A stretch of DNA of 64,000 bases from an uncultured Actinomycetota bacterium (GTDB taxonomy: Bacteria > Actinomycetota > Acidimicrobiia > Acidimicrobiales > Bog-793), in assembly GCA_963735115.1 (NCBI GenBank), contig CAVTJR010000001.1:401958-465957 (forward strand), in the 5' to 3' direction. Below are positions 18,486-44,769 of the stretch, piece after piece. Each line of letters begins with the position of its first letter. Position 1 is the stretch's first letter. Below the pieces are notes generated by a model. That model saw only the letters and a program-made list of their open reading frames with translations. It was not told the origin of the DNA and did not search any database. The position numbers and the translations under genes are program-made.

Positions 18486-18522
18486 TGGGCGCCCTGCAGA
18501 GCCCCGGCCGAGAGACTACAAG
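18486..18522. repeat. possible decayed copy of the tRNA-Met 3' half (outermost att remnant)
   Basis: TGGGCGCCCTGCAGAGCCCCGGCCGAGAGACTACAAG aligns with gaps to TGGGCCCGGCAGGGATCGAACCTGCGACCGAAGGATTATGAG. It is followed by the same conserved flank as the 25.86-kb copy. Confidence 0.35.
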
Positions 18523-18660
18523 TCCCGGCCAGGGAACCGCTTTCCCCTGCTCAGAATGGCGGCGAGTTGCGTCCCTCGCAGGTCATCACGAGTAACCGGC
18601 ACCCGGCCGGATCAAGCCCACAACCGGGTGCGACGAGTTGGAAGGAGAATGCAGGGACGC
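18523..18660. repeat. conserved non-coding module S, copy 1 (partner 25911-26048)
   Basis: Shared blocks GTTGCGTCC(C)TC.CAGGTCAT.A.GAG and CAACCGGGTGCGACGAGTTG.AAGG...GGGACGC. A non-conserved spacer of identical length (28 nt) separates them. Confidence 0.7.
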
Positions 18661-18887
18661 CAGCCGCAAGCATCTCGGCCGCCTCACCGGCGCTACCGGA
18701 ATGGCGAGGACGACTGGGAGATTCGAGTAACCTGTTGTGGCATCCATTACGATTTGGCGGCGTTGGCGTGGACTGGACAAAGCTCCCGACCGCAGACTTA
18801 CTTGACGATCGACACCGAAGGGCTGGATCGGATCCATCGTGGGATTCCATCTGGGAAGACTTTGTTTTTTTCGAGGATTGATTGAAT

Positions 18888-19559
18888 ATGGGCAACGGAC
18901 GACTGGGACAACCCGATCCCGACCCCGAAGGGCTGCTGGCACAAGCCAGAAGGATTGCCAAGATCTCACGAAAAGCTACGGATAGCGTACATGGCAGCTA
19001 CCTCGTCGCAAGGACTGAAGAGCAGTACAAGTATGCTATGGAAGCATTCGATAGCAGACATAGGACTCGGGAAGCAATTGAGACACGTGCAGAGTTGGAA
19101 CAATTTTCCAGGCAATCGGTCTTCATTGTACACGCGCCACTCCTATTAGATAGTTCGTCCTTTAGAAGGTTCTTCGATGCATTAGCAGCTTCCAAGAAGG
19201 TCGGGCGATTCTTCAATGGAACAGACAATGTTGATGAAATAGTGGCTCTCGCCAGAAGGCGTATGGAGAACCTGGACCGCTTACCTGCAGCCGAAGATGC
19301 TAATAGGGCTGCCACATGCATGCTATGGCGTGCCCACAGAGAGGAAGAGGCAATTGTCCTCTATGATGAATACACTGATGCGCTTGTGAGAGATATAATA
19401 GCAAACATTAGTAGAGGTGTTCTTTATCTAGTGGAGGCGAGATCCAAAATAGCAAGAAGACGACTACGATTGACGGGCAGGAAGGATGAAGCTGGTCAAC
19501 TATTCACAGTCGTGTATGAAGCGCTACAACCCCACCCTATGAGCAATTCAGGTTCATGA
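18888..19559 (+). CDS. low-GC orphan protein, all-helical, unknown function
   Basis: GAGGA 10 nt before the ATG at 18888. Its composition is clearly AT-richer than the surroundings. No motif recognised. Confidence 0.5.
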   Translation: MGNGRLGQPDPDPEGLLAQARRIAKISRKATDSVHGSYLVARTEEQYKYAMEAFDSRHRTREAIETRAELEQFSRQSVFIVHAPLLLDSSSFRRFFDALAASKKVGRFFNGTDNVDEIVALARRRMENLDRLPAAEDANRAATCMLWRAHREEEAIVLYDEYTDALVRDIIANISRGVLYLVEARSKIARRRLRLTGRKDEAGQLFTVVYEALQPHPMSNSGS

Positions 19560-19807
19560 CAGCACGCCTCTCGGCACGTTCCGCCTGAACCGCGATGCGG
19601 ACAACCGCCACCCGCAAGTTATTCCGCTGCAGACTAAAGCAGCGCTCCGGCGCGCCGCCGGAGCTCCGCCTGGTCGTGCTGGCCCGGCCGGATGGCCAGA
19701 ACGATGAGGTCTGTGGCGTCGATGGCGAAGAGGAGGCGCGAGCCGACCACAAGGTCACTGAGCGCTGGGAGGGCGGTCGAGCCGACCTCGCGTCTCGGGT
19801 CGCCCAC

Positions 19808-20197
19808 TCAGGCGCCCGGCGATACCACTGAGATCTGGGCGGCCTTTGCGCCGAGGATCATGCGCCCGTCGTAGGTGACGACACCCTCCAAATCGTCGCC
19901 GAACTCGAGGGCCGCCGCCAGATGCAACGCGTCGAGCGAACGAAGCTCTGGCGGTTCCAAGCGACCGGCGGTGAGGAATGTCGAGACGGCCGGCAGGACT
20001 AGCGATACCGCGGCCAACGCTCTTTCAATCGTCGTGTCATCGATCTCCAATCGGCTTGCGGCCCGTAGGGCTTCCGTTCGCAGAAGTTGTGACGACCACA
20101 ATGGTTCGTGGGCAGCGAACCACTCCCGCAGCGCAGTCGTTTCGCCTTCCTGAATGAGCAGTTTCAAGAACGCGGAGGTGTCGAGGTACCAGGTCAC
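19808..20197 (-). CDS. PIN-domain toxin (VapC-like)
   Basis: VTWYLDTSAFLKLL...SQLLRTE...LRSLDALHLAAALEFG...VVTYDGRM contains the PIN acidic residues. GTG start lies 7 nt after the antitoxin stop. Confidence 0.8.
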   Translation of the reverse strand: MTWYLDTSAFLKLLIQEGETTALREWFAAHEPLWSSQLLRTEALRAASRLEIDDTTIERALAAVSLVLPAVSTFLTAGRLEPPELRSLDALHLAAALEFGDDLEGVVTYDGRMILGAKAAQISVVSPGA

Positions 20198-20204
20198 GCC
20201 GGCC

Positions 20205-20468
20205 TCAGCTGTCGTCGCGCAACTCGTTGAGCACCTCACCAGTCCGACGGCGCGCCGCTGCAGGCTTGGGCAGGTCCGCAGCCGAGGACTGGGCAGGCTG
20301 GACGCGCCCCGCTGCGATCAGCGCGCCGACTCCTCCCGCCACCGACGGCGGGGCGAGTATGGCAACGAGTCGACCCCGATCGGTGACACCGAGCGTTTCG
20401 CCGCGCTCGACCCGGCGTAACGCCGCAGACGCTCGCTGCTGTAACTCTCGTACCCCGATAGTTTCCAT
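20205..20468 (-). CDS. Phd/YefM-type antitoxin
   Basis: METIGVRELQQRASAALRRVERGETLGVTDRGRLVAILAP, the classic Phd/YefM N-terminus. Confidence 0.8.
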   Translation of the reverse strand: METIGVRELQQRASAALRRVERGETLGVTDRGRLVAILAPPSVAGGVGALIAAGRVQPAQSSAADLPKPAAARRRTGEVLNELRDDS

Positions 20469-20753
20469 GTGCTGCAAGTGTAGCACATCGGAGACTCTTC
20501 TGGCGTTACCCGCCGACAGAAGCCAGCACGACGAGGGCTCGCCGCCTTTTGACGATCGATTTGTCCGTCTTCCCCACACCGCGCCGCACGATACGCTGCG
20601 GCTGGGCGCCTTCCTCGTCGATGAGCCGCCGGTCGCGAAACAGGTTTGCTCACCCAGTCTCAGCGCGGGGCCGGCGAAGTGGTGGACGTACCTGCAAAGG
20701 TTGGTGGTCAGGGGTTGGTGGCCAGGGCACCAGGAGCTGCGGGCGCAGGTGGC

Positions 20754-21905
20754 TTAGACGTCCCGCTTCATCATCCGACGGGCCCCGATCACACTCCAGG
20801 CCACCAGCCAGCAGACGATCACGAACGCCGCCTCTTTCGTCGTCTCGGGCACCGAGTGACTGACTGCGCCAGGCCCGCCGCCGCCGCCGAATACCGGAAC
20901 GAGGGCTTTAGGCTCGAGATGGGCCGTTGAGACTCCCACGATGGCACGCTGCAGGTTGACGAGGTGCGGTATGGGCGTCCGAGCAACGATCGGGGTCACG
21001 ATGAGTTCGAGGACGATCATCAGGATCACCGACACCGTTCGCTGGCCTATGAGCGAGCCCAACCCTAACCCGATCATGAATCCAGTAAGGGCCTCCAACT
21101 CCACCCACAGTCCGCTCTCAATCATGAGGGACACAGGCGGAACCAAGAAGGTGTTCTTGTAAGAGTCGTAGTTGAACCTGGCGATCTTGACGGCGGCGGC
21201 CTTGTACTCGGCCGTCGGGGTCGTGGTCACGCCACCCGCAGCTGCTCCCGTCGGACTGATCAGGCCGTTCGGCCCGCATGGGAAGTTGCCAAGGTTGCCT
21301 GGATACGGAAAGTCACAGATCACCTCGCTGTAGTGGGCTTCCGCCCATGTCTCGAAACCCGTGACTGACAGACCTTGGGGCACGGCAACGCCCTGGTAGC
21401 TGAGGGTGGTCGGTGCGGCGTAGACGCAGACCACGCACACGATGGCAAACCCGACCGCCACCAAAGGGGCGAATATCGCCGTGCCGGCTGGAATCCGAGC
21501 GAGGTACAACGCTAAGCGAGAGCGGCCTGTCACAACCAAGTGCCTAAAGACGCCATCGGACAAGTCCGAACATCCGGCCGTGCACCCCAAGGTGGCGGCA
21601 ACGATAAACCCGAATACGTACATCAAGTTGCTCACGAGAGGTGTAAAGACGTCGTAGCCGCCAGCAGGACCATAGGACTTCGGGTCTACTGCGTGACTGA
21701 TCAGGCGTACCGCTAGGAAGATAGCCGGAAGCCCGATGTCGACGGCGATGAGGGCGATCATGAGACCCCGCCTCTTGCGCAGTTCCAAGATCTTCGCCGC
21801 GATCATCCTGCCGTTGGGGATCCACGATCCCCGCCGATCTCGTCCGGCGGGCTGCATCCCGGGCATCTGTGGGCCGGCTGGGCTGGCTTCGATTGCGATT
21901 GTCAT
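20754..21905 (-). CDS. ABC-2 type transporter permease
   Basis: Multi-TM protein. Its ATG overlaps the ATPase stop (ATGA), so it pairs with the upstream ATPase. Confidence 0.7.
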   Translation of the reverse strand: MTIAIEASPAGPQMPGMQPAGRDRRGSWIPNGRMIAAKILELRKRRGLMIALIAVDIGLPAIFLAVRLISHAVDPKSYGPAGGYDVFTPLVSNLMYVFGFIVAATLGCTAGCSDLSDGVFRHLVVTGRSRLALYLARIPAGTAIFAPLVAVGFAIVCVVCVYAAPTTLSYQGVAVPQGLSVTGFETWAEAHYSEVICDFPYPGNLGNFPCGPNGLISPTGAAAGGVTTTPTAEYKAAAVKIARFNYDSYKNTFLVPPVSLMIESGLWVELEALTGFMIGLGLGSLIGQRTVSVILMIVLELIVTPIVARTPIPHLVNLQRAIVGVSTAHLEPKALVPVFGGGGGPGAVSHSVPETTKEAAFVIVCWLVAWSVIGARRMMKRDV

Positions 21906-22846
21906 GACTGCGCCCCAAAGCGACTCGTAGCCTCGAGGAACCACGACTCGAGCGACGTCTGCATCGGCTGCACTCGGTAAATCGAAATGCCTCCGTCTGC
22001 GAGATCACGCACAAGCGTGGCGATGACCTCCCGCGACGTCCCGGTTGGGAGTGTCACCCGGATGCCCTCGGGCCCGCTCGTCACCTGGGTCGCCGGCCTC
22101 CCCTGCTCGACGAGTGACCTTGCCTGCTCCGAGTCCGAGCACTCGATCTCGACGACGAGCGAGGAACCCGCAAGCAGTTCCGAGATCGATCCCTGCCGGA
22201 TCACTCGGCCTTTGTCGACTATGGCCACGGCATCGCACGTGCGTTCCACTTCGTCGAGCAAGTGAGACGAGAGAACGACGGTGCGCCCCTCTTCAACCAG
22301 GGACTTGATCATCTCCCGCATGTCTTGCATCCCCGCGGGATCGAGGCCGTTCATCGGCTCGTCGAGCATGAGGAGCTGAGGATCTCCGATCAGGCAAGCC
22401 GCCACACCAAGGCGTTGGCGCATGCCCATTGAGTACTCCGCCACGCGGTCGTCGGCTCGCTGGCTGAGGCCGACCCGCTCGAGTGCCGGGGCGATGCGGC
22501 GGCGCGACTCTGGCTCTCGGGAGGCGGAGAGGATCTCAAGGTTCTGCCTGCCCGTCAGATGGGCGTGAAAGCGAGGTTCGTCGACGATGGCGCCGACCCT
22601 TGCTAGGGCGATATCGCGGTGCTTCGGCACTTCGTGGCCGAGCAGGGACATCGTGCCTGAGTCGACCTCGGTCAAACCGAGCAGGACCCGAATGAGCGTG
22701 GTCTTGCCAGCACCATTCGGGCCTAAGTAGCCGAAGGCACAGCCTCTTGGCACGCGGAGCTCGACGTCGTTCACGGCGACGTTCTGCCCGAAACTCTTTG
22801 TAAGTCCGTGGGTTTCGACTGCCCACTCAGTCCCTGTTGCCGTCAT
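21902..22846 (-). CDS. ABC transporter ATP-binding protein
   Basis: Walker A GPNGAGKTT, signature YSMGMRQRL, Walker B LLMLDEP. GGAGGAG lies before the ATG at 22846. Confidence 0.9.
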   Translation of the reverse strand: MTATGTEWAVETHGLTKSFGQNVAVNDVELRVPRGCAFGYLGPNGAGKTTLIRVLLGLTEVDSGTMSLLGHEVPKHRDIALARVGAIVDEPRFHAHLTGRQNLEILSASREPESRRRIAPALERVGLSQRADDRVAEYSMGMRQRLGVAACLIGDPQLLMLDEPMNGLDPAGMQDMREMIKSLVEEGRTVVLSSHLLDEVERTCDAVAIVDKGRVIRQGSISELLAGSSLVVEIECSDSEQARSLVEQGRPATQVTSGPEGIRVTLPTGTSREVIATLVRDLADGGISIYRVQPMQTSLESWFLEATSRFGAQS

Positions 22847-23574
22847 CCGCTCTCCTCCGTCTGGGACTCTGGCAGTGGTCGACTCCCTGTCATTAGGGTC
22901 GCATTCCAGTGCGTCCGTGTCGTCGGCTCGCGGGAGGTTTCTCGCGTAAGCCGTAGGGGGTAGAGCAGTGGCTGGCGCGTACATCGAGGGGCGTAGCCGC
23001 GACCCCGGAGGCTGACGACGTGGCCCGACTCGTTCTGTAACGTCGAGGGGGTGAGTGGTTCAGAGCAATCAGTGCTGAGTCCGTGGCCGGGGCTCCTCCA
23101 TCGGGTCACGGCACGGCCACTGATTGTCGACTTGGTTCCGGCTGCATAGGCCCCTACCGAATCGGGCCCCACCACCGCCACATGCTCGGAAGGACTCGGA
23201 GGACTTCGGCTCGGCGTTCTGGACGATGCCGACCCCTTGCATCGAGCGGTCGCGCTCGTGGTTGTTGCCTGCCCGCGAACGGGACCTTAGGGACGCTCTC
23301 AGGCAACGGAGCGATCGCAATATTGGGGCAGGAACAGACTTTGCCGAATCAGGACTCTCAAGCGAACCGGCTCTCCGGTGAACCCGGCCCGACGCCGATT
23401 TAGCATGCCTGCCGGCGCAGGCTCCGAGCGTCACTCTGTGACCCCCGACCCCGCGATGGGGGCAGCTGATCACCCGATCACCTTCCGCAATTCGTAATCG
23501 AACTCCCTTGGGTCGATCGGGGCCGACAGCGATGACCGGCCGGTGGGGAGGCCACGCACTAGCTTTTTCTGATT

Positions 23575-24555
23575 GTGGAGGATTCGGCTGATGTGACGAC
23601 CTCTCAAGCCACCACCACGGCGAAGAAGCCGTCCAGCATCGAACGAATTCAGCGGTTGGAGAAGCTTGAGCAGGAGCGCCTCGAAGAGAAGGCGCACAAG
23701 GAGGAACGTCGGCGCCAGGTGATCGCCGGGGCGAAGCCCTCCGGCGGGCGCCACGATCTCGTCGACCGAATCGAACGGATCACGAAGTTCCCGATGACCC
23801 TCCTGGGGGTCGCCTGGCTCGTCCTCGCCATCGTCGTGCTCAGCACTGGCTTCAAAGGTTCGGCCTCTAAAGTCCTCGTCGGCGGCCTTTTCGTGCTCTG
23901 GGTGGTCATGCTGGCGGAGTACCTCGTGCGCCTAGTGGTCACCCCTGACACGCCCGGCTATCTCAGGCGGCGGTGGGTAGAGCCGGCGACCGTGTTGGTG
24001 CCTGTCCTCCAGGGCTGGCACGTCGTAGGAATCGAGAAGATGAGCCTCCTTTTGCATGAGGGGGAGCTGCGAGTGGAGTCCATCCTGAAGCACCACAGCC
24101 TCTTTCGGGTGCTCATCGCCGTCGTCGTAACCCTCCTCCTTGGGGCCTGGCTCGTTCTTCTCTTTGAAGAGAAGGCCAAAGGGAGCAACATCCACGATTA
24201 CCCCGACGCGCTGTGGTGGGCCATCGTTACTGTCACCACCGTGGGTTACGGGGACCGGTTCCCCGTCACCGAAGGTGGACGGGTCGTGGCCGTGATCCTG
24301 ATGCTGGTAGGAATCGGCCTCATCGGCGTGCTGACCGCGACGGTTGCGTCCGTGTTCATCAAGGAACACACCGACGACAACAAGGAAGAGTTCAAGAAGG
24401 GCCACGCCGACCTGGGCCAGCAGCTATCGGTGATCAGCGACCGGCTGGCCGACGTCGAACGCCGGCTCGGCGCCACGCCAGCTGAGGTGGCGGCGGTGGA
24501 TGCGGTCGCAGACGCCGAGGCTGCGGCGAACGGGCCGGTCGAACCAGATCCGTGA
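23575..24555 (+). CDS. potassium channel (6-TM-like, ion_trans_2 pore)
   Basis: Selectivity filter TVTTVGYGD. Several TM helices and a charged coiled N-terminus. The GTG start is uncertain. Confidence 0.85.
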   Translation: MEDSADVTTSQATTTAKKPSSIERIQRLEKLEQERLEEKAHKEERRRQVIAGAKPSGGRHDLVDRIERITKFPMTLLGVAWLVLAIVVLSTGFKGSASKVLVGGLFVLWVVMLAEYLVRLVVTPDTPGYLRRRWVEPATVLVPVLQGWHVVGIEKMSLLLHEGELRVESILKHHSLFRVLIAVVVTLLLGAWLVLLFEEKAKGSNIHDYPDALWWAIVTVTTVGYGDRFPVTEGGRVVAVILMLVGIGLIGVLTATVASVFIKEHTDDNKEEFKKGHADLGQQLSVISDRLADVERRLGATPAEVAAVDAVADAEAAANGPVEPDP

Positions 24556-24787
24556 GCGTCGTCAGTCGGCCCACGGACATCGTCAGAATCAGCTTTTGTG
24601 TTGCTCCTCCGCGACGAGGTTCCTCGAAAGGAGACCGATGCAAGGAGCCAGTGATCCCACATCAATGACGTTGACACAATCCCGTGTGATACTTCTTGGA
24701 CGGTGAGGGAGCTGGGCCTGTTGAATCAGTGAGGTAGCGAAGAGCTTTCTGGAGCGAACGTTAAATCGAAAGGTCGGGAGAAGGGTT

Positions 24788-25165
24788 ATGAGGCGAGGTC
24801 TTACTATCGGCTTGCTGCTTGTCCTAGTTGGTTTCTTAATACTCGTCGTTGTCTTCTGGACTGACTCTGCTCATTGGTTCCTGCGCTACACCGGTGCGGA
24901 TGCCGAGTCGGGAACCTGGTACGGGTTCTGGTCTGGGTTCGGTGGTGCGATTCCTGACTTTCTCATCCTTGGCAGCATCATCACCATCTACCGCCACCAC
25001 AATTGCCACGTTAAGGGATGTCTACGACTTGGGAAGCCGGTCGAAGGCACCCCGTATATTGCTTGCCCGGCGCACCATCCGGCGCACGAAGGCAACAAGA
25101 GATCAGTGTCAGAGGACATCATCAAGCTCGCTCACGAGGCCCACCTCAAGCGAGCGGCGTCGTGA
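24788..25165 (+). CDS. small membrane protein with Cys/His-rich tail, unknown function
   Basis: Low-GC ORF with two TM helices, then HHNCHVKGCLRLGKPVEGTPYIACPAHHP. Confidence 0.45.
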   Translation: MRRGLTIGLLLVLVGFLILVVVFWTDSAHWFLRYTGADAESGTWYGFWSGFGGAIPDFLILGSIITIYRHHNCHVKGCLRLGKPVEGTPYIACPAHHPAHEGNKRSVSEDIIKLAHEAHLKRAAS

Positions 25166-25342
25166 TTCTGAGGACTTTGAGACCCTGGAGTCTGAGCGGC
25201 TGACATGCAAATCGACCAAGGCAGCCAAACTGTCCCGACGAAACGGTGAGAACCATCCACTTCGCATACCCTGGGTGACAGCCTTAGTCATGCTGCAGTT
25301 CTCGAGCACGGACCGAACTCCGTGAGCCCTTGATCGCGCCGC

Positions 25343-25810
25343 TCATTGTGGGGATCCTCCTTGGTCTGACAGCGCGCCGCTCGACTGCCCCTGGCCGCTT
25401 CGCTTCAGCTCGCGATACCAGCGCTCGAGGTCGTAGGAGGACAACGATGCAATGCGGCGCCGTCCGATGTCGTCACGTATGTGGACATCCCAGAGGCTCT
25501 GGTAACGCTTGGTCGTGTACGGACTGAGGTCCTCCCAGCCGTTCGCCTGCCAGGCGGCGAGGGCGTCGTTGAGCGTGGTCGTGGGACCCCAGGTGCGAGG
25601 ACCCTCCTCCGGCATAACGGCGGGCACCGCCTCCTGCTCGGCCACGAGCCGGGCGAGCTGACGCTCGGCAGCTCGCTCGGTACCGCGGAACGTGACACTG
25701 TGATGGCGGATGCGACCGTTGGAGTCGCGGCCGACGAAGACGCGCAATTCCCAGGCATTTGCTCCGCGATCTGCTCCGCGATCCGGGCGCTGTCGGATGC
25801 TGCCAGCCAC
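25343..25810 (-). pseudogene. tyrosine integrase, N-terminal fragment only
   Basis: (V)AGSIRQRPDRG..AWELRVFVGRD...TFRGTERAAERQLARLV...TLNDALAAWQ... is the arm-binding plus SAM-like N-domain of phage-type integrases. The ORF stops before any catalytic R..HxxR..Y region. Its start is about 50 bp from att copy A. Confidence 0.65.
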
Positions 25811-25863
25811 GGCGCCTCCATTCCCCTGCCAGCGGCACTGCATAGGCCGTGAACTGGACTTTT

Positions 25864-25910
25864 AACGGTGGGCCCGGCAGGGATCGAACCTGCGACCGAA
25901 GGATTATGAG
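25864..25910 (-). repeat. att copy A: 47-bp copy of a tRNA-Met 3' half (anticodon loop to 3' end)
   Basis: AACGGTGGGCCCGGCAGGGATCGAACCTGCGACCGAAGGATTATGAG is identical to 28534-28580. No tRNA 5' half is adjacent. Confidence 0.9.
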
Positions 25911-26048
25911 GCCCGGCTGGAGCAGCTCGTTCTTCTGCGCAGACTGGCGCCGGGTTGCGTCCTCACAGGTCATAAAGAGCGCGAGGCGAGCAACAGCGAA
26001 CAGGATGCAACCGGGTGCGACGAGTTGCAAGGTAATTGTCGGGACGCG
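25911..26048. repeat. conserved non-coding module S, copy 2 (partner 18523-18660)
   Basis: See copy 1. It lies immediately inside att copy A. Confidence 0.7.
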
Positions 26049-26116
26049 AGCGACGTCGGCACCACGCGTCCAGGCCGCCGATCGACCTCCAGGGCTTCGC
26101 GAAGACGCCGCCAGGC

Positions 26117-26149
26117 GTTCCATAGTGCTACCATGTAGCACTATGGAAC
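26117..26149. promoter_or_regulatory. candidate antitoxin operator
   Basis: Perfect 14-bp inverted repeat GTTCCATAGTGCTA-ccatg-TAGCACTATGGAAC. The right arm contains the antitoxin ATG (26143). Confidence 0.5.
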
Positions 26150-26409
26150 GGATCGGGGTCAGAGAGCTTCGCCAGCATGCCAGTCGCTACCTTGCCCGGG
26201 TTGCGACGGGAGAGACGATTGAGGTGACCGACCGAGGCCGGCCGGTCGCGCTGCTCGTTCCCACCCACGAAGACCGGTGGCAGGACCTGGTGGCCAGCGG
26301 TCAGGTTCTCGCCGCGACCGGTGAGGGCCATGTGGTCGACGACGCACCAAGCGACTACGGTATCGACGCCTCCGCGCGACTGGCGGCGATGCGCGCGGAG
26401 GAACGATGA
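26143..26409 (+). CDS. Phd/YefM-type antitoxin
   Basis: MERIGVRELRQHASRYLARVATGETIEVTDRGRPVALLVP. It is a paralogue of the gene at 20205-20468. Confidence 0.8.
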   Translation: MERIGVRELRQHASRYLARVATGETIEVTDRGRPVALLVPTHEDRWQDLVASGQVLAATGEGHVVDDAPSDYGIDASARLAAMRAEER

Positions 26410-26804: not shown

Positions 26805-27074
26805 ACCAACCGGCATGAGGCCGACTTGAGCCGCCTCCGTTCCGGCCGAACCACGGTCACCCTGTTCTTCTCCTCTCTCGCCGGTCCAACCCAGCACGAT
26901 CCGGCGGCTGAAGGCGGGCGGCCGGATCGGTGAGTGATCCCGCCGACAGCGCAGGACCACAGGCTGCGATGACATGGCGCCACTCTGTGGCCGTCGGTTC
27001 GATCAACAACGACGGCCACGGCAACGTCGTCGCCACCACGAGCGCCACGAGCACGACGGCGACGCGGAGCAGGA

Positions 27075-27281: not shown

Positions 27282-27312
27282 ATCCCACGCTGCCGCGTGC
27301 CGGCAGGAGAGA

Positions 27313-36248: not shown

Positions 36249-36322
36249 ACATGAGTTGCACGCCGGATGAGGGAATTACTTGACGGAATCGTCAGGGAAT
36301 TACGTGACGGTTGACATACGGG

Positions 36323-36770: not shown

Positions 36771-37249
36771 TCAACGGGGTTTGCTGTCAACAGCAGTTCG
36801 TTCGGAAATAGGCCGCTACACCTATCAATAGACGTTCAGATTGGTGTGTTTGTAAGATTGTATGAGCAGTTCCGGGGCTCCGGAGCCTCGACCACAGTCA
36901 TGTTCCGGTGACCACCCGAGGTCGCTCGGCAGATGACGCCAACTTTCCGTTACGTCCATCGACGCCACCGTCTGCGCGCACTCAGCCATCAGGCCTTGCA
37001 CGATCCAAGCCGGGTATTCCGCTAGTCCGCGTCTGGGCGCATGCAAACACGCCAAGCTCACCTCCAGCACGTCGAGCCATAACCCTGTCCGCGGCCCCGA
37101 GCGAGCTACAACCGCGGACCGTCAACGGCAGACTAGCGGCGAAGGCTCACGAGCTCCTTGACGCGCCGTTCGCTTGCGCGTACACTCCCAGCGTGAGGCG
37201 GACTGGGATGGTCGGTAAGTAACGGTCTTTATGATCTCCCAGGCGCTTA

Positions 37250-38056
37250 ATGTGCCACTTTCCTCTGCGGTACTCTTGCTCTGGGAAGCTGGGCGAAAGT
37301 CTCAATGTCGGTCAGAACACAGGCAGCTTGTTCGTTGGAATCATTGGTTCACTTACGGCTCCAGGTCCCTCGCAAGTTGATACTTCAGATGATCAGGCGC
37401 TGCTGCTTTGGCTTGGAATGGAAGAGTATTCCACTCCTACGGGTTACTACTGTGACTTGGATGGCGAGCTTACCCATTACTGCTGGACCCAGGTAGGCCT
37501 AGCAATGGGCACGTTCGGAGATCCGTATTGCCCAGGCAATCCGCGGACCACGACTTCGGACACGAGCTACGAGGTCTACTTCGAACGGTACGATATCAAC
37601 GGTTGCGCGGACGTGCTGAGCACTGTCGACATTGATACGAGCGACGCTGTTCCATTTCAAGACAACTGGACAGGCGAGTATATCGATGGAGGCTACCAAT
37701 ACGAATCTCAGGTTGTCGACAGCTCTGACCACTACGTTGAAATCGGCACTGGTGACCTCTACTACCTCGACATTCACGCGGAAGCACAGGCAGAGATTCA
37801 CACTGGGAGCGATACAACCTGTCCCACGCTAACCGGTGGCTCGCCGTATCAGCACTTCGGCGATCAAGTCGATGGTAGCTGGGATGGTGGATCCGCCAAA
37901 CTTCAGGTCGAGAACTCCTCGACCGATACATTCAGTCCGTGGTCGACTGCTGATGGACCCAGTGCTCCCTTCTCGGATAGCCCCTATTGGGTAACTGAAG
38001 GAGGTCATTGGCCAGCTGATTTCCAAACTAACGGCCCAGGGGGTGGACCCCCGTGA
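37250..38056 (+). CDS. low-GC acidic Cys/Tyr/Asp-rich protein, unknown function
   Basis: 268-aa ORF with no recognisable motif. The start is uncertain. Its stop overlaps the next gene's start, which suggests an operon. Confidence 0.45.
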   Translation: MCHFPLRYSCSGKLGESLNVGQNTGSLFVGIIGSLTAPGPSQVDTSDDQALLLWLGMEEYSTPTGYYCDLDGELTHYCWTQVGLAMGTFGDPYCPGNPRTTTSDTSYEVYFERYDINGCADVLSTVDIDTSDAVPFQDNWTGEYIDGGYQYESQVVDSSDHYVEIGTGDLYYLDIHAEAQAEIHTGSDTTCPTLTGGSPYQHFGDQVDGSWDGGSAKLQVENSSTDTFSPWSTADGPSAPFSDSPYWVTEGGHWPADFQTNGPGGGPP

Positions 38057-39327
38057 TTCGAGTTGGATCACCGGACAGGGAGAGGCGTAATAGGCTAGCA
38101 ATTCTGGGTATCGTCTGCCTTTGCGCCGTGACGCTGTCCGCATGTGGAAGAGGGATCGAAACGAGCAACGGTCATTCCCGCATTAGCAAACCACCCAACC
38201 AAGCTGCGTACCGCTATCTCACTCGGTCAACAGTTGTGCCAGCCAACGGACCTTCTTGGTTGCTCCCAGCCGGATTCAGCACTTTGCAGAGCCTGACCGG
38301 TGACCCGAACGGAACTGGCGCCTGGTTCTGGGACAGTACCTCCAACGAAGACGTGATTTTCAACTCAAGCGCAGGCAATATCTCAGAGTGGCCTGTGCTA
38401 TCGGGTAGCAACTTTCAGCAGAGCGAACAGGCGGGCGGGTTGGCAGTCGACCCGCAAGGCAACGTTTGGTTGGCTATTAACCTGACGCTCATCGAGTTGG
38501 ACCCGGCGACGGGAGCCACGGAGACTTGGACAATTCCCACTCCGAGTGCAAATCTCGCGGCTGCTAGCTTCGAACCGTCGGGCGCGGCTGAGATCGCAGT
38601 GACCGGCTTGGCGGCGAGCCCTTTGGGGACGATCGCCATATTGACCAGTAATTCGAGCACAGTTGAGGTATTCGACCCTCGATCGTCCGAATTCGACAGC
38701 ATCTCAATGCCGACCGATGACGACCTTCCGACCGCTGCGGCGTTCTCAGGAGACGGGACCTTGTGCATTGGCTTCTCAGCAGTCGAGGAAGGCACGGGCG
38801 GTACTGCTTCCAACCTGATGATCCTGAGCCCTAATGGTCAAGCCGCAACTTACTCACTTCTCACACCGGGATCAGCCTGGGACATCGCCCCCTTAGGATC
38901 GTCGAGCTTTGTCGTCGGAGATGAATCGCCTGAGTTGGCGACCACTTCTGGAACTATCACGAGCATCAATTCACCGAGTGCCTTGGTGGGAAGCGGGCAG
39001 CCAATGACGCCCCTTGTCGTCGCAGGCGGCGACGTCCTAGTCGGACACGCTCAAGGTGGACTGGTTGCGTTTCCCGACGATGCAAGTTCTGTTGCCCAAG
39101 CTACAGAGGAGTCGACGTTCATTCCGTCGGCCCAGGTTTGCGGCCCCAGCGGAGACGCTCCCGGTCCGGGCACGTCCACCGAGGGGACAGTCTGTGGCGC
39201 GCCTGGATATTTTGATGTCGTTGCCGACGGCGATGGAGACCTCTGGACCGTCGGAAGCGGCGGCGTCTCCGAGGTACCGCCTCAAACGGTTAGCGCTGCC
39301 ATCACGAGGGCCACTAACAGGGCCTGA
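38053..39327 (+). CDS. low-GC lipoprotein, beta-propeller-like repeats, unknown function
   Basis: Lipobox LAILGIVCLCAVTLSAC. Repeated ...G..WF/WL..., ...DPQGNVWLA..., ...DGDLWTV... strands resemble NHL/Vgb-lyase-type propellers. Confidence 0.6.
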   Translation: MIRVGSPDRERRNRLAILGIVCLCAVTLSACGRGIETSNGHSRISKPPNQAAYRYLTRSTVVPANGPSWLLPAGFSTLQSLTGDPNGTGAWFWDSTSNEDVIFNSSAGNISEWPVLSGSNFQQSEQAGGLAVDPQGNVWLAINLTLIELDPATGATETWTIPTPSANLAAASFEPSGAAEIAVTGLAASPLGTIAILTSNSSTVEVFDPRSSEFDSISMPTDDDLPTAAAFSGDGTLCIGFSAVEEGTGGTASNLMILSPNGQAATYSLLTPGSAWDIAPLGSSSFVVGDESPELATTSGTITSINSPSALVGSGQPMTPLVVAGGDVLVGHAQGGLVAFPDDASSVAQATEESTFIPSAQVCGPSGDAPGPGTSTEGTVCGAPGYFDVVADGDGDLWTVGSGGVSEVPPQTVSAAITRATNRA

Positions 39328-39573
39328 CGGATACGGACCCCCTTCACCAGCGGCTGGGCTCGGATGCCGAACCTTGCATGTGACCGTCGAGAACCCTCCC
39401 GCATCGCAGGCGACGAAGTTGCCCACATCCCGCCGCGGCACCGTCGTCGCACAACTGCCAGCCGTCGGGCACAAGTAACTCCGTGGACTGCCGTCGTCCT
39501 TCGAGTGGATGACCCCGCCGGCCAGGGGTCAGTTCCCCGCTGACGATTCTGCACAGCGCAGCCTGAGAAACGG

Positions 39574-42500
39574 CTACAGCCCCGGGCCGAGCTGCGGCCG
39601 CGGCGGCTCGTGATGGGGTGTCGGATCGGGGCGTCGTAGCTGGCGGTTCCCAGCGGGTACGGGTTGGGGAGCTGACCTTCTTCGGATGCCGTCGAGTCGG
39701 TCCCGGTGGGCATCGAGGCCGGCAGCTAGTCCATCGGCGGTCCGACATAGATCCCACGTTCGCTCGCGCGAGAGGCGGGAACGAGCCTCCTGGCGCTCCA
39801 GGCGGGCGGCGAGCCGCTCGACGTCTCCTCGGTGGCGAGCGATCTCGGCGTCGAGACGGGCGGCTTCGGGGACGACGTGAGTCTGCGAGCGCTGCTCGGC
39901 GTCCTTCGCCCGCTCGGCCCAGCTGCCTGCTTCTCTGTTGGCCACACGGCGTTCGCGCCAACGACTCGCGTGCTCTGCTCGCCAGCGTGCCGAGGCCATC
40001 CCAACTGTGGCCTCGGCAAGATCGACGACGGCGCTGCCGGCCTCGGAGTACGCGTAGCTGCCCGAACCTGTGTCCAGATCGGCCCTGGCCTGCTGGGCTT
40101 GGCCCAAGGCAGCTTGAGCCTCGCCGAGGGCCGGGGCGAGATCGGGCGGTCTGATCCTCGCATTGGCCTGGGCGACGATCGTGGTCTCGGCGTGGACGAT
40201 GGCGGCGATCTGGAACTTTTGCTCGTCGCCCATACCGGCGACGGCCTCGGCGGTGAGCTTCTCGTGATCGAGCAGACCGGTGTCGATGGCCCAGGTTGGC
40301 GTGCGCTGCGTCGACCAGTCACGTCTCAGGTCCTCGGCGGCCTGGGCGAGACCGTCGGCAACGGTCCAGGCGTGTGAGGATTCGCGACCGCGGCTCATGG
40401 CCACGTAGGCGAGCTCGCGTCCCTCGCCGTCGGCGAAGAGGTGGGCTCGGGTCACCGTGGCGCCTTGACTGCGGTGAACCGTTGTGGCGTATCCGTAGCC
40501 GAGGCGTTCGGCGCCGGCCTGCTCGCCGGTGAGCCGGACCTCTCGGCCGTCGCTCGTGCGGAGATCGATCGCTCCGGTGGCTGGATGAACGGCATGCACG
40601 ACGGCCCGCTCGGAGGTGACGAGTCTGCCGCCCGGGCCTGGGGCGAGGGTGACCACTTCGTCGCCGGCGCGGTAGGCGTTGCCGCCGGGGCAGACGAGCT
40701 CGGGGCCGGAGAGGCGGGCCGTTGCGTCCATCCAGCTCCTCGCCCGTTCGTTGAGCTCGGAGACGTTCGCCCGTCGCCAGGCGTAGAGGCCGACGTCGTG
40801 CCCCGCTGCGACATCGGCGCTCCAGGCGTCCACGGCTGCCTGCAAGGCTGTTCCTCTATCGGCTTCGGCGTGGATGCGCTCGCGCTCGACATAGAACGAG
40901 ATCGCCTCGGCCACCTCGCCGTCGCGAAGTGCCGCCAGAGCTTGGCGCTCCTCGGGGTCGTGCTGGCGTCGGTTCTCGCTGAGATGATGGACGGCATCCG
41001 GGTGGCGGGATACCAGTGCGCCGAGGGCGCCGCCGGGGCCGACCGGCCCGATCTGATGGTGGTCGCCGACGAGGATCAACTTGGCGCCGGCCGCTTCCAC
41101 ATGGGCTGCCAGGCGGACGAGGTCGACGTCGTCGGTCATCCCCACCTCGTCGAGGATGACGGCCGTTCGTTCGCTGAGGCTGAGTTGATGGTGGTCGAGT
41201 CGCCAGATCAAGCTGGCGAGGGTGCGCGACTCGCCGATCTCGGCTTCGCTCGACAGGGTGCGAGCGGCCTGGCCCGAGGTGGCGGTGCCGAGCACCTGGT
41301 AGCCGGCCTCGGTGAAGGCGGCCGCCACCACCTTCAACATCGTCGTCTTGCCGGCGCCGGCGACTCCCTCGACGAGCTCGGCGCCTCGACCGGAGGTGCA
41401 GATGGCCACGGCCGCCGAGCGCTGCTCCTCCGAGAGCTCGGCCCCGAGGCTCGCCTCGGCCTCGTCGATAGCCGCCTCCGCCTCGACCTCGGTGACCGCC
41501 GGGGCGTCATCGCGTGCGAGTTGGCGCTGCAGGCTCTCGGCGATGGCCGTCTCGCGGGCAAGTACCGAGGCGAGGGAGTACACCTGCTCTCTGGCGCCGC
41601 TCACCCCGACGAGGGGGACGCACTCGGGATCGGCGAGGGCGCGGTCGACGAAGGCGTCGAGGAGGGCCGGTCCCCGCCCGTAGAGGTGGGGAGCAAGGAC
41701 GACGACCACGTGTCGCCGGGAGAACACCTTGCGGCGGGCAAGCTCGCCGTCGTGTCCGAGGACCTCGGACAGGAGCCGGCGGCCATCCTTGGGCGTCAGC
41801 GACCGAACCTCGTCCCGGGCGGCCTCGACCGATGCCAGCAGCCGCTCGACCGGCCAGCCGGCAGCTTCGAGCTCGGCGCGCCAGCGGTCCACCAGCTCCC
41901 TCTCTGCCTCGTGCTCCTTGGAGGACCGGGTGGTGCGGGCGGCGATGCCTCGGGCGCGATAGGACGTCGCGCCGCGGCGCTGGCACTCGGCCTCGATCTC
42001 GGCTGCGCGCTTCGAGTGCAGTGCGAGGACCTCGTCGGGGATGCCGGCGATCCGCCAGTGTCCGAGTTTCCCGGACGGACCCGGATCGGCTTCGATCCCA
42101 TAACCCAGCCCGACGGCTACGCGGGCAGAGGCCACCCGCCCCACCATGGTGGCGGCATGCAGGTGCTCTCGCCACAAGGTCGTGTCGGCTGCCTTCCAGC
42201 CGCCACGGTCGTCCCGCATCTCGACGAGATTGCCCACAAGGACGTGATCGTGCGGGCTGGGATCGCCTGCCCGCGAGGTGGCGTGACGGGTGTGGGCGTA
42301 GATGAGCCCTCCCGTCTGGCTCGCCGTTGCGGCTCTCCCTCGCCGGCCGCCCATCTGACGGGTGACCCGGTCGAGATAGGCCAGGGTGGCGTCTCGCTCG
42401 GCGTCCATGATGGCGTGCATGTCCTCGGCTCGGCCGATCACGCCCAGCTCTGCGACGCTCTTGTGGCCCGAGATGACGAGCTCCATGCCCGGACGGCGGG

Positions 42501-42807
42501 TGGCCACCAGCCGATCCAACGTGGCGGGATGCCGGGCACCACCCGCCCCGAAGACTGCTTCGTAGGACTCGGGCGATACCGACTCGGACAGACCGAGCGA
42601 CATCGCGCCAGAGCCGCCCCACACGAGCGGAGTCTCGCCCCGAGAGGCGTAGTACTGAAGTGCCATGCCGGGAAAGTCGTCGGCGCGTTCGAGCACCGTG
42701 GCCCGGTGGTACTCCACCGACTCGGCCCCCATCATCCGCATCCACGCCACTGCTCTGTCACCACTTCCGTACGACGGTCCGGCCTTTGGCAACCTCAAAG
42801 GTTGCAA
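39574..42807 (-). CDS. MobF-family relaxase/helicase (TrwC/TraA-like)
   Basis: N-terminal TrwC relaxase domain (YYASRGETPLVWGGSGA, histidine cluster HTRHATSRAGDPSPHDHVLVGN). C-terminal RecD-like helicase (Walker A GVAGAGKTT, DEVGM, ...ATTVHRSQGATV). The true start may be M23 (42741). Confidence 0.9.
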   Translation of the reverse strand: MQPLRLPKAGPSYGSGDRAVAWMRMMGAESVEYHRATVLERADDFPGMALQYYASRGETPLVWGGSGAMSLGLSESVSPESYEAVFGAGGARHPATLDRLVATRRPGMELVISGHKSVAELGVIGRAEDMHAIMDAERDATLAYLDRVTRQMGGRRGRAATASQTGGLIYAHTRHATSRAGDPSPHDHVLVGNLVEMRDDRGGWKAADTTLWREHLHAATMVGRVASARVAVGLGYGIEADPGPSGKLGHWRIAGIPDEVLALHSKRAAEIEAECQRRGATSYRARGIAARTTRSSKEHEAERELVDRWRAELEAAGWPVERLLASVEAARDEVRSLTPKDGRRLLSEVLGHDGELARRKVFSRRHVVVVLAPHLYGRGPALLDAFVDRALADPECVPLVGVSGAREQVYSLASVLARETAIAESLQRQLARDDAPAVTEVEAEAAIDEAEASLGAELSEEQRSAAVAICTSGRGAELVEGVAGAGKTTMLKVVAAAFTEAGYQVLGTATSGQAARTLSSEAEIGESRTLASLIWRLDHHQLSLSERTAVILDEVGMTDDVDLVRLAAHVEAAGAKLILVGDHHQIGPVGPGGALGALVSRHPDAVHHLSENRRQHDPEERQALAALRDGEVAEAISFYVERERIHAEADRGTALQAAVDAWSADVAAGHDVGLYAWRRANVSELNERARSWMDATARLSGPELVCPGGNAYRAGDEVVTLAPGPGGRLVTSERAVVHAVHPATGAIDLRTSDGREVRLTGEQAGAERLGYGYATTVHRSQGATVTRAHLFADGEGRELAYVAMSRGRESSHAWTVADGLAQAAEDLRRDWSTQRTPTWAIDTGLLDHEKLTAEAVAGMGDEQKFQIAAIVHAETTIVAQANARIRPPDLAPALGEAQAALGQAQQARADLDTGSGSYAYSEAGSAVVDLAEATVGMASARWRAEHASRWRERRVANREAGSWAERAKDAEQRSQTHVVPEAARLDAEIARHRGDVERLAARLERQEARSRLSRERTWDLCRTADGLAAGLDAHRDRLDGIRRRSAPQPVPAGNRQLRRPDPTPHHEPPRPQLGPGL
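42789..42805. promoter_or_regulatory. inverted repeat GCAACCT-caa-AGGTTGC just upstream of (or in the first codons of) the relaxase gene; oriT-type hairpin candidate
   Basis: Perfect 7-bp arms with a 3-nt loop, positioned next to the relaxase start. Confidence 0.3.
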
Positions 42808-42839
42808 TCGTGTTCTGCTCTAGTTGGGTATATAGGAGC

Positions 42840-42950
42840 TGGTGAGGGATGTAAAGGGGTTGATTTGTGAGCGGTAAGTAGCGGTGAGTAATGGTAAATG
42901 ATGGTGAGGAAGAAGTGGTGGGATTGGTGATGGCGGGTGGCTGCTGGGGC
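42840..42950 (+). repeat. C-depleted G/T/A-rich tract with phased GGTRA repeats
   Basis: Only 3 C in about 110 nt on the + strand. GGTAA/GGTGA occurs at 42873, 42883, 42893 and 42903 (exact 10-bp phase), with further copies at 42841, 42917 and 42926. Confidence 0.7.
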
Positions 42951-43138
42951 TGGGGCAGTGAGCAAGGAGCTGAGCCGGTCGCGCAGATAGCTTGGATGTG
43001 CCATCGCGCAGTAATTGTAGGACCGAGGCGACTGACGGCTCCTGCCGGGCCGCCATCGGTCCATATGTGGAGCGGCACACGGTCATGCGTCAGAGCCGTC
43101 GGGCAGCGGCGGACAAACCGTCATCAAAGGAGTCAGCC

Positions 43139-43342
43139 ATGACCGCGCCAGACCCGCTTCCTCACCTCCTCACCATCGACGAGCTCGCCGACCACCTCGG
43201 CGTGAATGTCCGCCACATCCGCCGGCTCATCGCCGAACGCCGCGTGCCGTACTTCAAGGTCGGTCGACTGATTCGCTTCGACCCGGCCGACGTGGCCAGC
43301 TGGCTCGCTCGGACTCGGGTCGATGGGCACCGCAGCGCCTGA
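43139..43342 (+). CDS. xis: excisionase-family HTH DNA-binding protein
   Basis: AAAGGAG plus the ATG at 43139. LLTIDELADHLGVNVRHIRRLIAERRVPYFKVGRLIRFDPADVASWL is a typical Xis/MerR-type winged HTH upstream of int. Confidence 0.85.
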   Translation: MTAPDPLPHLLTIDELADHLGVNVRHIRRLIAERRVPYFKVGRLIRFDPADVASWLARTRVDGHRSA

Positions 43343-43449
43343 CCGGCTGACACAGCCGCGGACTACGGTGGTGCCCACATCGCAGACCTCTCACGACGGT
43401 CAGCCCGTAGCAACCAGTCCTCACAGCACTACGCACGGGAGGTATCTCC

Positions 43450-44673
43450 ATGGGTCGCCGCCTCTCCGGATCGGTTGACCGACTGCCCTCCGGCCGTTGG
43501 AGAGCTCGCTACCGCGGGCCCGACGGTCACCGCCATACCAGTGGGTTTCGAACGAAGGCAGATGCCGACGCGTGGCTGGCGGCCCAGCAGACTGATCGCC
43601 GGCGCGGCGCATGGATGGATCCGAGGCTTGGACAAATCACCATCGCCGATTGGGCCGGCGCATGGATGCAGACAACGGTGCACCTGCGTCCCTCGACCCG
43701 TGCGGGGTACGAGGGCAAGCTGCGAGCCCACGTGTTGCCGCGGTTGGGCGGCGTTCCGGTCATCAGCCTCGACACGCCGGCGATTCGCCGCTTCGTGGCC
43801 GAGATGGCCGCCGACGGGGTCAGCCCTGCGACCATCCTCGGCGTGCGAGCCGTGCTTCGGCTGCTGCTCGGGACGGCGGTCGAGGCCGGCGCCATCGTCG
43901 TCAATCCCTGCGCTGGCATCAAGGTGCAACGACCGAAACGCCTGGAGATGCACTTCCTCACGGCCGACCAAGTAGAGGACCTGGCCGAGACCATTGCCGT
44001 CCCCGCGCCCAAGACCGCCGGCCATGGCGCCGGACCACACTGGCGCACCGATCTCCCGGAGTACGGGCTATTGATCCGGTTCGCCGCCTACACCGGTCTC
44101 AGGGCGGGCGAGATCGGCGCCCTGCGGGTCGGGAGGCTCGACTTCCTCCGCTCCACCGTGGAAGTCGCAGAATCGGCGACCGAGGTCAACGGCCAGCTCG
44201 TCTACGGGCCAACCAAGAACTATCACCGGCGTGCCGTGCCGCTCCCTCCGTTCCTTAGGGACGACCTCGCCGCTCTCCTCCGGACCCGACCGCACGATCC
44301 GGACAGCTTCGTCTTCGCCGCACCTGAGGGTGGTCCGCTGCGGCACAACAACTTCTACCGCCGCCACTTCAAGCCCGCAGTGCTGCAAGCGGGCCTCCCG
44401 GCGGATTTGCGGTTTCATGACCTCAGACATTCCTTTACGGGATTCCTCATCGCTCAGGGAGCCCACCCGAGGGCGATCATGGAGCGACTCGGGCACTCCT
44501 CGATCCAGGTCACACTCGGCACCTACGGCCACCTCCTGCCGGGCATCGACGAGCGCCTCACAGTCGGTCTCGACGACCTCGGACGAGCCGCTCGCGCCGC
44601 CTCATCCGATTCCCGTGGGTCACGCTTGGGTCACGCCCCCGTGACGACCCTGCCGGTGGCTTCACATAAATAG
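43450..44673 (+). CDS. int: tyrosine-type site-specific integrase
   Basis: N-terminal arm-binding/SAM-like domains. Catalytic GLRAGEIGALR...FHDLRHSFTGFLIAQGAHPRAIMERLGHSSIQVTLGTYGH. The stop lies 24 bp from the tRNA 3' end. Confidence 0.95.
   Translation: MGRRLSGSVDRLPSGRWRARYRGPDGHRHTSGFRTKADADAWLAAQQTDRRRGAWMDPRLGQITIADWAGAWMQTTVHLRPSTRAGYEGKLRAHVLPRLGGVPVISLDTPAIRRFVAEMAADGVSPATILGVRAVLRLLLGTAVEAGAIVVNPCAGIKVQRPKRLEMHFLTADQVEDLAETIAVPAPKTAGHGAGPHWRTDLPEYGLLIRFAAYTGLRAGEIGALRVGRLDFLRSTVEVAESATEVNGQLVYGPTKNYHRRAVPLPPFLRDDLAALLRTRPHDPDSFVFAAPEGGPLRHNNFYRRHFKPAVLQAGLPADLRFHDLRHSFTGFLIAQGAHPRAIMERLGHSSIQVTLGTYGHLLPGIDERLTVGLDDLGRAARAASSDSRGSRLGHAPVTTLPVASHK
44615..44637 (+). repeat. tandem TGGGTCACG motif inside the int 3' end (partner 28688-28710)
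   Basis: GTGGGTCACGCTTGGGTCACGCC versus TTGGGTCACGTTTGGGTCACGCC at the opposite end of the element, in the same orientation. Confidence 0.6.
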
Positions 44674-44696
44674 CCACTGAACTGGGCTTTATTGCG

Positions 44697-44769
44697 TGGG
44701 CCCGGTGGGGATCGAACCCACGACCGAAGGATTATGAGTCCTCTGCTCTAACCACTGAGCTACGGGCCC
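44697..44769 (-). tRNA. tRNA-Met (CAT) (elongator type; Ile2-lysidine type cannot be excluded)
   Basis: Reverse complement GGGCCCG-TA-GCTC-AGTGGTTA-GAGC-A-GAGGA-CTCATAA-TCCTT-CGGTC-GTGGG-TTCGATC-CCCAC-CGGGCCC-A forms a full cloverleaf. Confidence 0.9.

Follow-up and report, generated by a model that had tools for sequence, protein, structure and literature searches.

A probable tandem array of three integrative elements at a tRNA(CAT) gene of an uncultured Acidimicrobiales bacterium

The behaviour of tyrosine integrases that target tRNA genes is well established and has been summarised in the Islander paper, which counted 125 tandem doubles and four triples among 3919 islands and required each member of a tandem array to have its own integrase (PMC4383910). 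In streptococci and other systems, the tandem accretion among integrative and conjugative elements (ICEs), integrative mobilizable elements (IMEs) and cis-mobilizable elements (CIMEs) has been described, for instance for the ICESt1/ICESt3-related elements of Streptococcus thermophilus and for the IME_Sag2603_tRNAlys composite (PMC5704250). In this study, we analyzed a stretch of 64,000 nucleotides from an uncultured Actinomycetota bacterium of the order Acidimicrobiales (GenBank assembly GCA_963735115.1, contig CAVTJR010000001.1, positions 401,958 to 465,957 of the forward strand), hereafter called the window, to which all coordinates refer. Positions 18486-44769 very probably represent three site-specific integrative elements in tandem, units A (18523-25863), B (25911-28533) and C (28581-44695), which would all have used the 3' half of a single tRNA(CAT) gene for entry. 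A preliminary description of this DNA had proposed serial site-specific accretion of three units, and the core of that proposal is supported by the attachment site (att) copies, by two families of flanking arms and by the presence of unit C in a second junction context.

The target gene was found by ARAGORN as a tRNA(CAT) at 44696-44769 (minus strand) and by the Rfam tRNA model at 44697-44769 (minus strand, 75 bits). It reads toward lower coordinates, and the integrated DNA lies below 44697. The 44-nt core GGTGGGCCCGGCAGGGATCGAACCTGCGACCGAAGGATTATGAG has two exact matches, 25867-25910 and 28537-28580, both in the orientation of the tRNA gene, and none of 100 shuffled controls (0/100) gave a match. 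The 47 nt of 25864-25910 and 28534-28580 agree letter for letter, and over 54 nt the identity is 96%. About 42 nt of each 47-mer are derived from the tRNA, reaching from the anticodon loop to the discriminator, and the final 5 nt lie beyond the tRNA end; the 5' half of the tRNA is missing from both. These 47-mers without a 5' half, noticed beforehand from the letters alone, are thus confirmed, as is the intact tRNA gene. Further hidden 3'-half copies or E-type arms (see below) were not detected in the window by a profile search. An intact tRNA gene accompanied by a displaced fragment in direct orientation is what Islander uses to recognise an island, and the tRNA(CAT) gene with its two exact copies presents exactly this arrangement.

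44697-44769, minus strand: intact tRNA(CAT), integration target and attL of unit C; T stem GTGGG/CCCAC (ARAGORN, Rfam)
28534-28580, minus strand: copy 2 of the displaced 3' half, serving as attR of C and as attL of B, with T stem GCAGG/CCTGC
25864-25910, minus strand: copy 1 of the displaced 3' half, serving as attR of B and as attL of A, with T stem GCAGG/CCTGC
18486-18522, minus strand: putative outermost copy of the 3' half, much decayed, which would be attR of A (positional homology, 7-nt gap)

The sequence CTCATAATCCTTCGGTCG is the same in the intact tRNA and in both copies. The intact gene differs from the copies at four positions only (44706/44707 and 44719/44720), which form two adjacent T-stem pairs, and the compensatory double change described earlier was confirmed at precisely these positions. 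The preliminary description had named the gene tRNA-Met(CAT). Its CAT anticodon stands, and the ARAGORN label rests on the anticodon only; the Met isotype appears the less likely one. Judged by sequence identity, the target is probably a tRNA-Ile2 (CAU, lysidine type) rather than a tRNA-Met: in E. coli genomes, the sole full-length matches are genes annotated as tRNA-Ile with a CAT anticodon (82%), and global identity amounts to 62/73 with E. coli tRNA-Ile(CAT), compared to 53/74 with the elongator tRNA-Met and 47 with the initiator.

The att copies are adjoined by arms of two families. A distal arm of about 170 nt, here called E-type, was aligned across six elements, namely units A and B and those of loci L001, L034, L036 and L039 (related loci are numbered with the prefix L). 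The arm of unit B (nhmmer 4e-43) is 80% identical to the E-type arm in L001, and 18505-18664 matches 25893-26051 with 69.6% identity (blastn, E 7e-9). Units A and B are thus two diverged (~70%) and defective members of one family. The arms of unit C carry GGGTCACG repeats, which occur at nine sites in the 64 kb, five of the nine falling into two short clusters (28690-28718 and 44617-44635). They are candidate arm-type sites for IntC, the integrase of unit C, which has an N-terminal domain of the arm-binding type in addition to the motifs LRAGE, TKNY, HDLRH and LGTYGH.

18523-18694, no strand: distal (P) arm of unit A, E-type (blastn and family alignment)
25911-26090, no strand: distal (P) arm of unit B, E-type (motifs GTTGCGTCCTCGCAGGTCAT and CAATTGTYGGGACGCG; six-element alignment)
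28581-28760, no strand: distal (P) arm of unit C; three GGGTCACG repeats stand in tandem at 28690-28718, and the arm has more GTGAC/GTCAC motifs
44600-44696, no strand: integrase-proximal (P') arm of unit C, with two GGGTCACG repeats at 44617-44635 and an inverted CGTGAC
44671-44692: 22-nt motif common to both element families, within the P' arm of unit C

The window belongs to a population known from peat metagenomes and from metagenome-assembled genomes (MAGs) of uncultured bacteria, with contigs that are 99.8-99.9% identical (exact-protein look-ups). A degenerate 43-nt pattern of the 3' half identified 41 loci, 25 in metagenomes and 16 in genome records titled Acidimicrobiales, Microthrixaceae or Actinomycetota. 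Each of them (41/41) is either a complete tRNA(CAT) gene or a fragment of its 3' half, and about half adjoin a recognisable C- or E-family arm. In L001, L006, L009 and L010, IntC and its arm lie beside a 3'-half fragment and not beside the intact gene, which constitutes the second junction context of unit C. The fragment in these L001-type contigs is joined to a different E-type arm, followed by approximately 10 kb of sugar-metabolism genes; the contigs equal the window over 39788-44705 (~5 kb) save for the four T-stem bases, and homology to unit C in this context spans window positions 29355-44741. That L001 might contain a different distal part of unit C was considered and rejected: the homology break at 29355 is an intron insertion at a contig end, with a group II intron (L001 1-112; Rfam RF02003, 70.7 bits) at the start of the Phd/ParE operon and the contig terminating within it.

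The distal arm of unit C stands beside a 3'-half fragment in L026 and L027, and in L026 arm and fragment are joined to unrelated DNA. Relatives of the C family occupy the same tRNA, intact or as fragments, in L030 (Int 50%, TrwC 71%), L035 (92%), L036 (97% over part of Int) and L029/L042. E-type integrases adjoin the intact tRNA in L054, where an HTH_17 gene follows, and in L032. The homologues of the unit A integrase (P0001-P0033) are mostly short (93-277 aa) with varied end points, some of them on contigs of 0.2-0.5 Mb, which suggests frequent decay of the E-type integrase family or assembly breaks at the tRNA. In L029 (921-992) and L042 (1561-1632), the tRNA identity spans the whole anticodon stem, and fragment plus element arm give a weak Rfam tRNA match (31.4 bits, threshold 29).

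Judged from its gene content, unit C is an integrative mobilizable element with an intact integrase, a candidate excisionase, a MobF relaxase and a Phd/ParE pair. It combines its own integrase, the candidate excisionase and att sites with a relaxase that is not accompanied by a complete conjugation apparatus; among the scanned unit C open reading frames (ORFs), no Pfam match to VirB4, VirD4, FtsK or other mating-pore and coupling-protein families was obtained. An identical IntC protein is encoded on 21 contigs (exact-protein look-up), with the HTH_17 gene called beside it in every contig. The relaxase scores 142.7 bits against the NCBIfam MobF model (cut-off 100) and is 28-30% identical to MobF proteins of actinobacterial plasmids. 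The low-GC cargo pair accompanies unit C in both junction contexts; its 424-aa product shows a weak match to the SGL beta-propeller, and zero PADLOC or NCBIfam matches were found for the two genes. The Phd/ParE pair is kept at the same end in the C-like relatives L029/L042. Of the three units, only C has an integrase within its interval as Islander demands.

43450-44673, plus strand: IntC, intact tyrosine integrase that has its catalytic motifs, convergent with the tRNA (Pfam Phage_integrase 8e-23; PDB matches)
43139-43342, plus strand: HTH_17 protein of 67 aa, candidate excisionase (Pfam HTH_17 1.9e-13)
39574-42807, minus strand: MobF/TrwC relaxase-helicase (Pfam TrwC 6e-48, AAA_30 6e-52)
37250-39327, plus strand: low-GC cargo, two genes of 268 aa and 424 aa (GC 0.56-0.58; Pfam)
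28795-29357, minus strand: toxin-antitoxin pair Phd/ParE, located at the unit's distal end (Pfam)

Unit B had been interpreted as a cis-mobilizable element. Structurally, this assignment stands: attL and attR are retained as exact copies on both sides, and the unit has no integration or transfer genes and appears deletion-derived, the E-type arm being clear and the remnant of the integrase region weak. Its genes are limited to a Phd/PIN pair, one unassigned ORF and a CorA-type transporter, with no recombinase detected by Pfam. Mobility is a different matter, since there is no intact E-type integrase in the window and no GGGTCACG repeat in 25911-26100, beside the outer att copy of unit B; cis-mobilization in this genome therefore appears doubtful. 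A 35-nt palindrome (91%) occupies 26116-26150, just upstream of the Phd/PIN genes, and probably serves their operon as operator. In L027 (5115-7583), an extra element of the IS21 family of insertion sequences (ISs), with an istA of 484 aa and an istB of 256 aa, sits in the distal arm of unit B (about window 25942-25950).

26143-26804, plus strand: Phd/PIN toxin-antitoxin pair (Pfam)
27247-28383, plus strand: CorA-type Mg2+ transporter, cargo (Pfam CorA 5e-63)
28434-28533, minus strand: remnant of about 100 nt, E-type integrase 5' region and P' arm (weak alignment to 25755-25866)

Unit A retains a truncated integrase: at its N-terminus the ORF is homologous to integrases over ~125 residues, and the tail beyond them is unrelated. 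This fragment is 85% identical to the N-terminal part of the L054 integrase, which lies beside an intact tRNA. The catalytic half was looked for in another frame and is absent from the window, where tblastn with the C-terminal domain of the L054 integrase found nothing of the E-type family. The ATPase among the cargo genes has partial PADLOC matches (mad3 1e-23, AriA 1e-11), its 396-aa partner has no family match, and the two could be an uncharacterised defence pair. Defence-system models tried on the cargo genes gave generic partial ATPase matches only and were dismissed. The integrase genes or fragments, the toxin-antitoxin pairs (three), the IS elements and the low-GC patches reported earlier for these intervals are all present. 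Each unit has one toxin-antitoxin pair, at most ~250 nt from the distal arm in B and C and ~1.3 kb inward in A. Toxin-antitoxin modules have a known stabilising role on islands, which the placement in all three units matches.

25343-25843, minus strand: truncated E-type integrase, ORF of 166 aa (Pfam SAM_3, weak)
23575-24555, plus strand: K+ channel, cargo of A (Pfam)
20754-22984, minus strand: 396-aa protein and ABC/AAA_21-type ATPase, cargo of A (Pfam)
19808-20486, minus strand: PIN/Phd pair, cargo of A (Pfam)

The arrangement can be explained by a simple scheme. An incoming circle would bring an attP whose tRNA-derived part runs from the anticodon loop to the 3' end, and recombination of this attP with the tRNA would rebuild a complete gene while pushing the earlier 3' half outward; the newest element would thus lie beside the intact tRNA and the oldest furthest from it. 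An arrival in the order A, then B, then C would fit the gradient of decay outward from the tRNA, with a degenerate outermost fragment, a truncated integrase in A, none left in B and an intact one in C. In the E-type layout, the integrase gene starts about 20 nt past the tRNA end and reads away from the tRNA. Decay has proceeded via deletion and nested insertion (a recombinase trio in IS21 in ISL3). Unit C would excise with its own Int and Xis and rely on the conjugation machinery of another element. The repeats, the genes, both arm families, the polymorphism and second junction context in other samples and the use of this tRNA by both families in relatives are observations; arrival order, present-day excision ability and the exact position of the crossover are what we infer. 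The predicted circle junction of unit C in plus orientation is ...GGGCTTTATTGC / GTGGGCCCGG-YR-GGGATCGAACC-YR-CGACCGAAGGATTATGAG / TGCCGTGGGGGCCATTTCGG..., and the site repaired after loss of C would read ...CCTGAATTTCAACG / 3' half / TCCTCTGCTCTAACC....

Several observations weigh against accretion as proposed. No contig among the pattern loci contains a circular attP or a repaired junction, the two excision products by which the preliminary description would have had the array checked. All contigs that include the right-hand neighbour gene have IntC by the tRNA, so presence/absence polymorphism of unit C is not seen there. L001, L006, L009 and L010 pair the identical IntC arm with GCAGG/CCTGC, and the alleles misfit one uniform crossover position. 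An empty site, which an alignment with relatives had been expected to reveal, was not recovered: the right flank is conserved and occupancy by the same families is seen, and none of the relatives is syntenic with the window left of 18486. Conservation of the right flank extends to L022, L028, L031, L048, L050, L054, L058 and L061, the right-hand MFS gene having 81-86% nucleotide identity in L048, L050, L054, L058 and L061 and 93% over 234 nt in L028. In favour of accretion, L048, L050 and L058 show no homologue of IntC or of the E-type integrase past the tRNA, where 1.9-2.7 kb can be read, and the same holds over 0 to 2.7 kb for all four of the five species with the MFS gene that have no E-type integrase. 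The sister contigs L022, L028, L031, L048, L050, L058 and L061 were considered as an empty site and discarded, as the DNA that follows the tRNA in them bears no relation to the window left of 18486. Lastly, the nhmmer profile of the 3' half misses 18486-18522 even at E<=100.

This last point bears on the outermost copy, which the preliminary description had called plausible. Sequence alone does not recover it; its position beside an E-type arm speaks for it, and we retain it as a putative copy on the grounds that it adjoins an arm homologous to that beside the 25864 copy. We thus infer the outer, third boundary of the array from arm homology. One could instead suppose that there are two bounded elements only, that 18486-18522 is no att remnant and that the left end of A is undefined or lies elsewhere. 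Besides the missed profile and the empty site that was not found, this would agree with the rarity of the left neighbour itself, a He_PIG gene (16647-18296) with two homologues only in the protein collection, given which the island might reach further. Yet the 170 nt next to it are of the arm family found against 3'-half copies in five other elements, with register and orientation unchanged, and homology to the relative L074 (76.6% nucleotide identity) stops exactly at the He_PIG stop codon at 18296, so we consider a two-element locus rather improbable. The final 174 nt of L074 past He_PIG contain no tRNA.

Somewhat more weight, although it is still unlikely, can be given to an arrival of the array, or at least of A and B, as one pre-assembled composite island. 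The transfer of accreted composites has been documented in other systems (PMC5704250), A and B occur together in every contig that covers them (L027), and the inner copies are identical with flanks that are alike over 54 nt. However, unit C is found without B beside it in L026 and in another junction context in the L001 type, the arms of A and B are only ~70% identical and hence no recent duplicates, and a composite would alter the place of accretion and leave its mechanism unchanged. A further idea is that the copies are not att sites made by an integrase and stem from a duplication in place, or from homologous recombination, of the tRNA region, which mobile genes would have entered later; short direct repeats can come from slippage, and no excision product has been seen. 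Such an origin is very improbable: each copy runs from the anticodon loop to the tRNA end like the att sites of integrases (Islander criteria, PMC4383910), family-specific arms flank each copy, also in other genomes, and an integrase or its remnant lies on the expected side of each copy. The notion that the 47-mer is a dispersed genome-wide repeat unrelated to the tRNA, named beforehand as a result that would overturn the proposal, has practically nothing left to support it, as the sequence occurs at three sites only in the window and the 41/41 metagenome and genome loci fall on tRNA genes or on fragments of the 3' half, many with integrase arms beside them. Accretion of three elements at one tRNA gene thus is our preferred reading.

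The position of strand exchange deserves separate consideration. A crossover near the anticodon loop, with a resident gene that now carries element-derived sequence, had been suggested for the array. In seven sister species the T stem reads GCAGG/CCTGC and the tRNA is otherwise identical to that of the window, which fits an element-derived resident gene; GTGGG/CCCAC is found again beside a C-family arm in L036, and the block of identity starts at the anticodon loop in both families. One fixed position for all elements does not survive: if every element crossed over at the anticodon loop, the integrase-proximal arm would in each case bring its T stem along, and the identical IntC arm carries either T-stem allele. 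We rejected this as a complete model. Under a uniform crossover 3' of the T stem, the native tRNA of this species would need two compensated pairs differing from the seven sister species. The data fit one family exchanging 3' of the T stem and the other at the anticodon loop, or short conversion. Exchange 3' of the T stem corresponds to the 'J' subsite and a start at the anticodon loop to the 'A' subsite pattern of Islander (PMC4383910).

A 22-nt motif (AWAAGyCCAGTTCAnnGGCTAT), 5-26 nt past the tRNA end, is common to both families and was seen at 44671-44692, at 25843-25863 and in L035, L036, L054 and L032. It is shared despite the opposite orientation of the integrase genes, the IntC gene ending there and the E-type gene starting there, and it is absent at unoccupied sister sites. 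It is conceivable, though speculative, that two families of opposite orientation use one tRNA target with different strand-exchange positions (anticodon loop versus 3' of the T stem) and that their integrations shuffle the T-stem allele. Different exchange positions would explain both the GTGGG/CCCAC of the window as opposed to the GCAGG/CCTGC of the sisters and the presence of unit C beside either allele. If true, mobile elements would rewrite compensated base pairs of a probably essential tRNA-Ile2 gene at population scale. The two T-stem alleles constitute a built-in marker for where each integrase cuts and hence a natural test of crossover position. The JGI contig L015, from the same sample as L006 and L027, begins at window position 44721, one base past a variable T-stem position; this start hints that both T-stem alleles are linked to an intact 5' half in that sample.

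Besides its own genes, unit C harbours insertions nested three levels deep: a trio of tyrosine recombinase genes lies in the istB of an IS21 element, which in turn splits an ISL3 transposase gene. The ISL3 gene is uninterrupted in L001 (350 aa), and the IS21-plus-trio insertion is missing in L001, L005 and L006 and is thus polymorphic in the population. Three consecutive tyrosine recombinase genes are enclosed by 50-nt terminal inverted repeats (32265-32314 and 35634-35683), a layout which we take to be that of a recombinase-in-trio (RIT) element. The gene sets and repeats found here are those of the RIT and IS21 families, and both elements are passengers in unit C that stand outside the att system.

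29503-30063 and 36280-36831, plus strand: ISL3-family transposase gene, split by IS21 (Pfam Zn_ribbon_ISL3, DDE_Tnp_ISL3)
30047-36316, plus strand: IS21-family element; its terminal repeats are TGTCRACCGTCACGTAATTCCC, and 6 bp of target, TACGGG, are duplicated
30226-31788, plus strand: istA of IS21
31785-32291 and 35701-35934, plus strand: istB of IS21, split
32265-35683, plus strand: three-recombinase element inserted in istB (tyrosine recombinase genes 32440-35554)

Two further observations concern the surroundings of the array. Near the left end of the window, a tRNA-Asn gene at 6251-6327 precedes a serpin gene (6640-8070, minus strand), a GC dip at 8-9 kb and a trypsin-like gene, and a very weak integrase-like match (E 0.25) was noted at 8263-8412; this region (6251-10072) may be another old island. 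In the distant Actinomycetota MAGs L052, L053, L056, L059, L060 and L062, homologues of window 745-3611 adjoin the 5' side of the tRNA. Here these genes are 41 kb away from it, and a rearrangement that had one of its ends close to the tRNA is suggested by this difference.

The array puts integrative mobilizable elements, along with what decay has left of them, on record for peat Acidimicrobiales, which are known here from MAGs only. To our knowledge, no mobile elements from peat Acidimicrobiales have been characterised. With their att arms and candidate arm sites, the two element families could guide the detection of islands in such genomes. Stacking, decay and addiction modules at island ends are already well established elsewhere.

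In the actinomycete integrative and conjugative elements (AICEs) pSAM2 and SLP1, the integrase gene ends by attP and converges on the tRNA 3' end, with the excisionase gene upstream. The layout around IntC is the same, and within the phage collection IntC has its closest annotated relative in intM, from the Micromonospora AICE pMLP1 (34% identity). In contrast to AICEs, unit C has a MobF relaxase and neither an FtsK/TraB-type translocase nor a replication gene, such domains being found among none of the ORFs of A, B and C, and for this reason we do not class it as an AICE. With the islands of the Islander collection, the locus shares an intact tRNA gene and displaced direct 3' fragments that begin at the anticodon loop and mark the ends (PMC4383910). 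Unlike the tandems counted there, only unit C has an intact integrase, with ~125 N-terminal residues left in A and none in B, so that the array would score as one island or as a double. The streptococcal arrays likewise combine distantly related integrases with a common target, and decay reduces the older members to remnants that have att sites on both sides and no recombination genes (PMC5704250). The present array differs from them in its Acidimicrobiales (Actinomycetota) host, its tRNA(CAT) target and its MobF relaxase, and it is known from sequence alone. Taken together, it is a clear but ordinary example of the pile-up of genomic islands in a poorly studied lineage.

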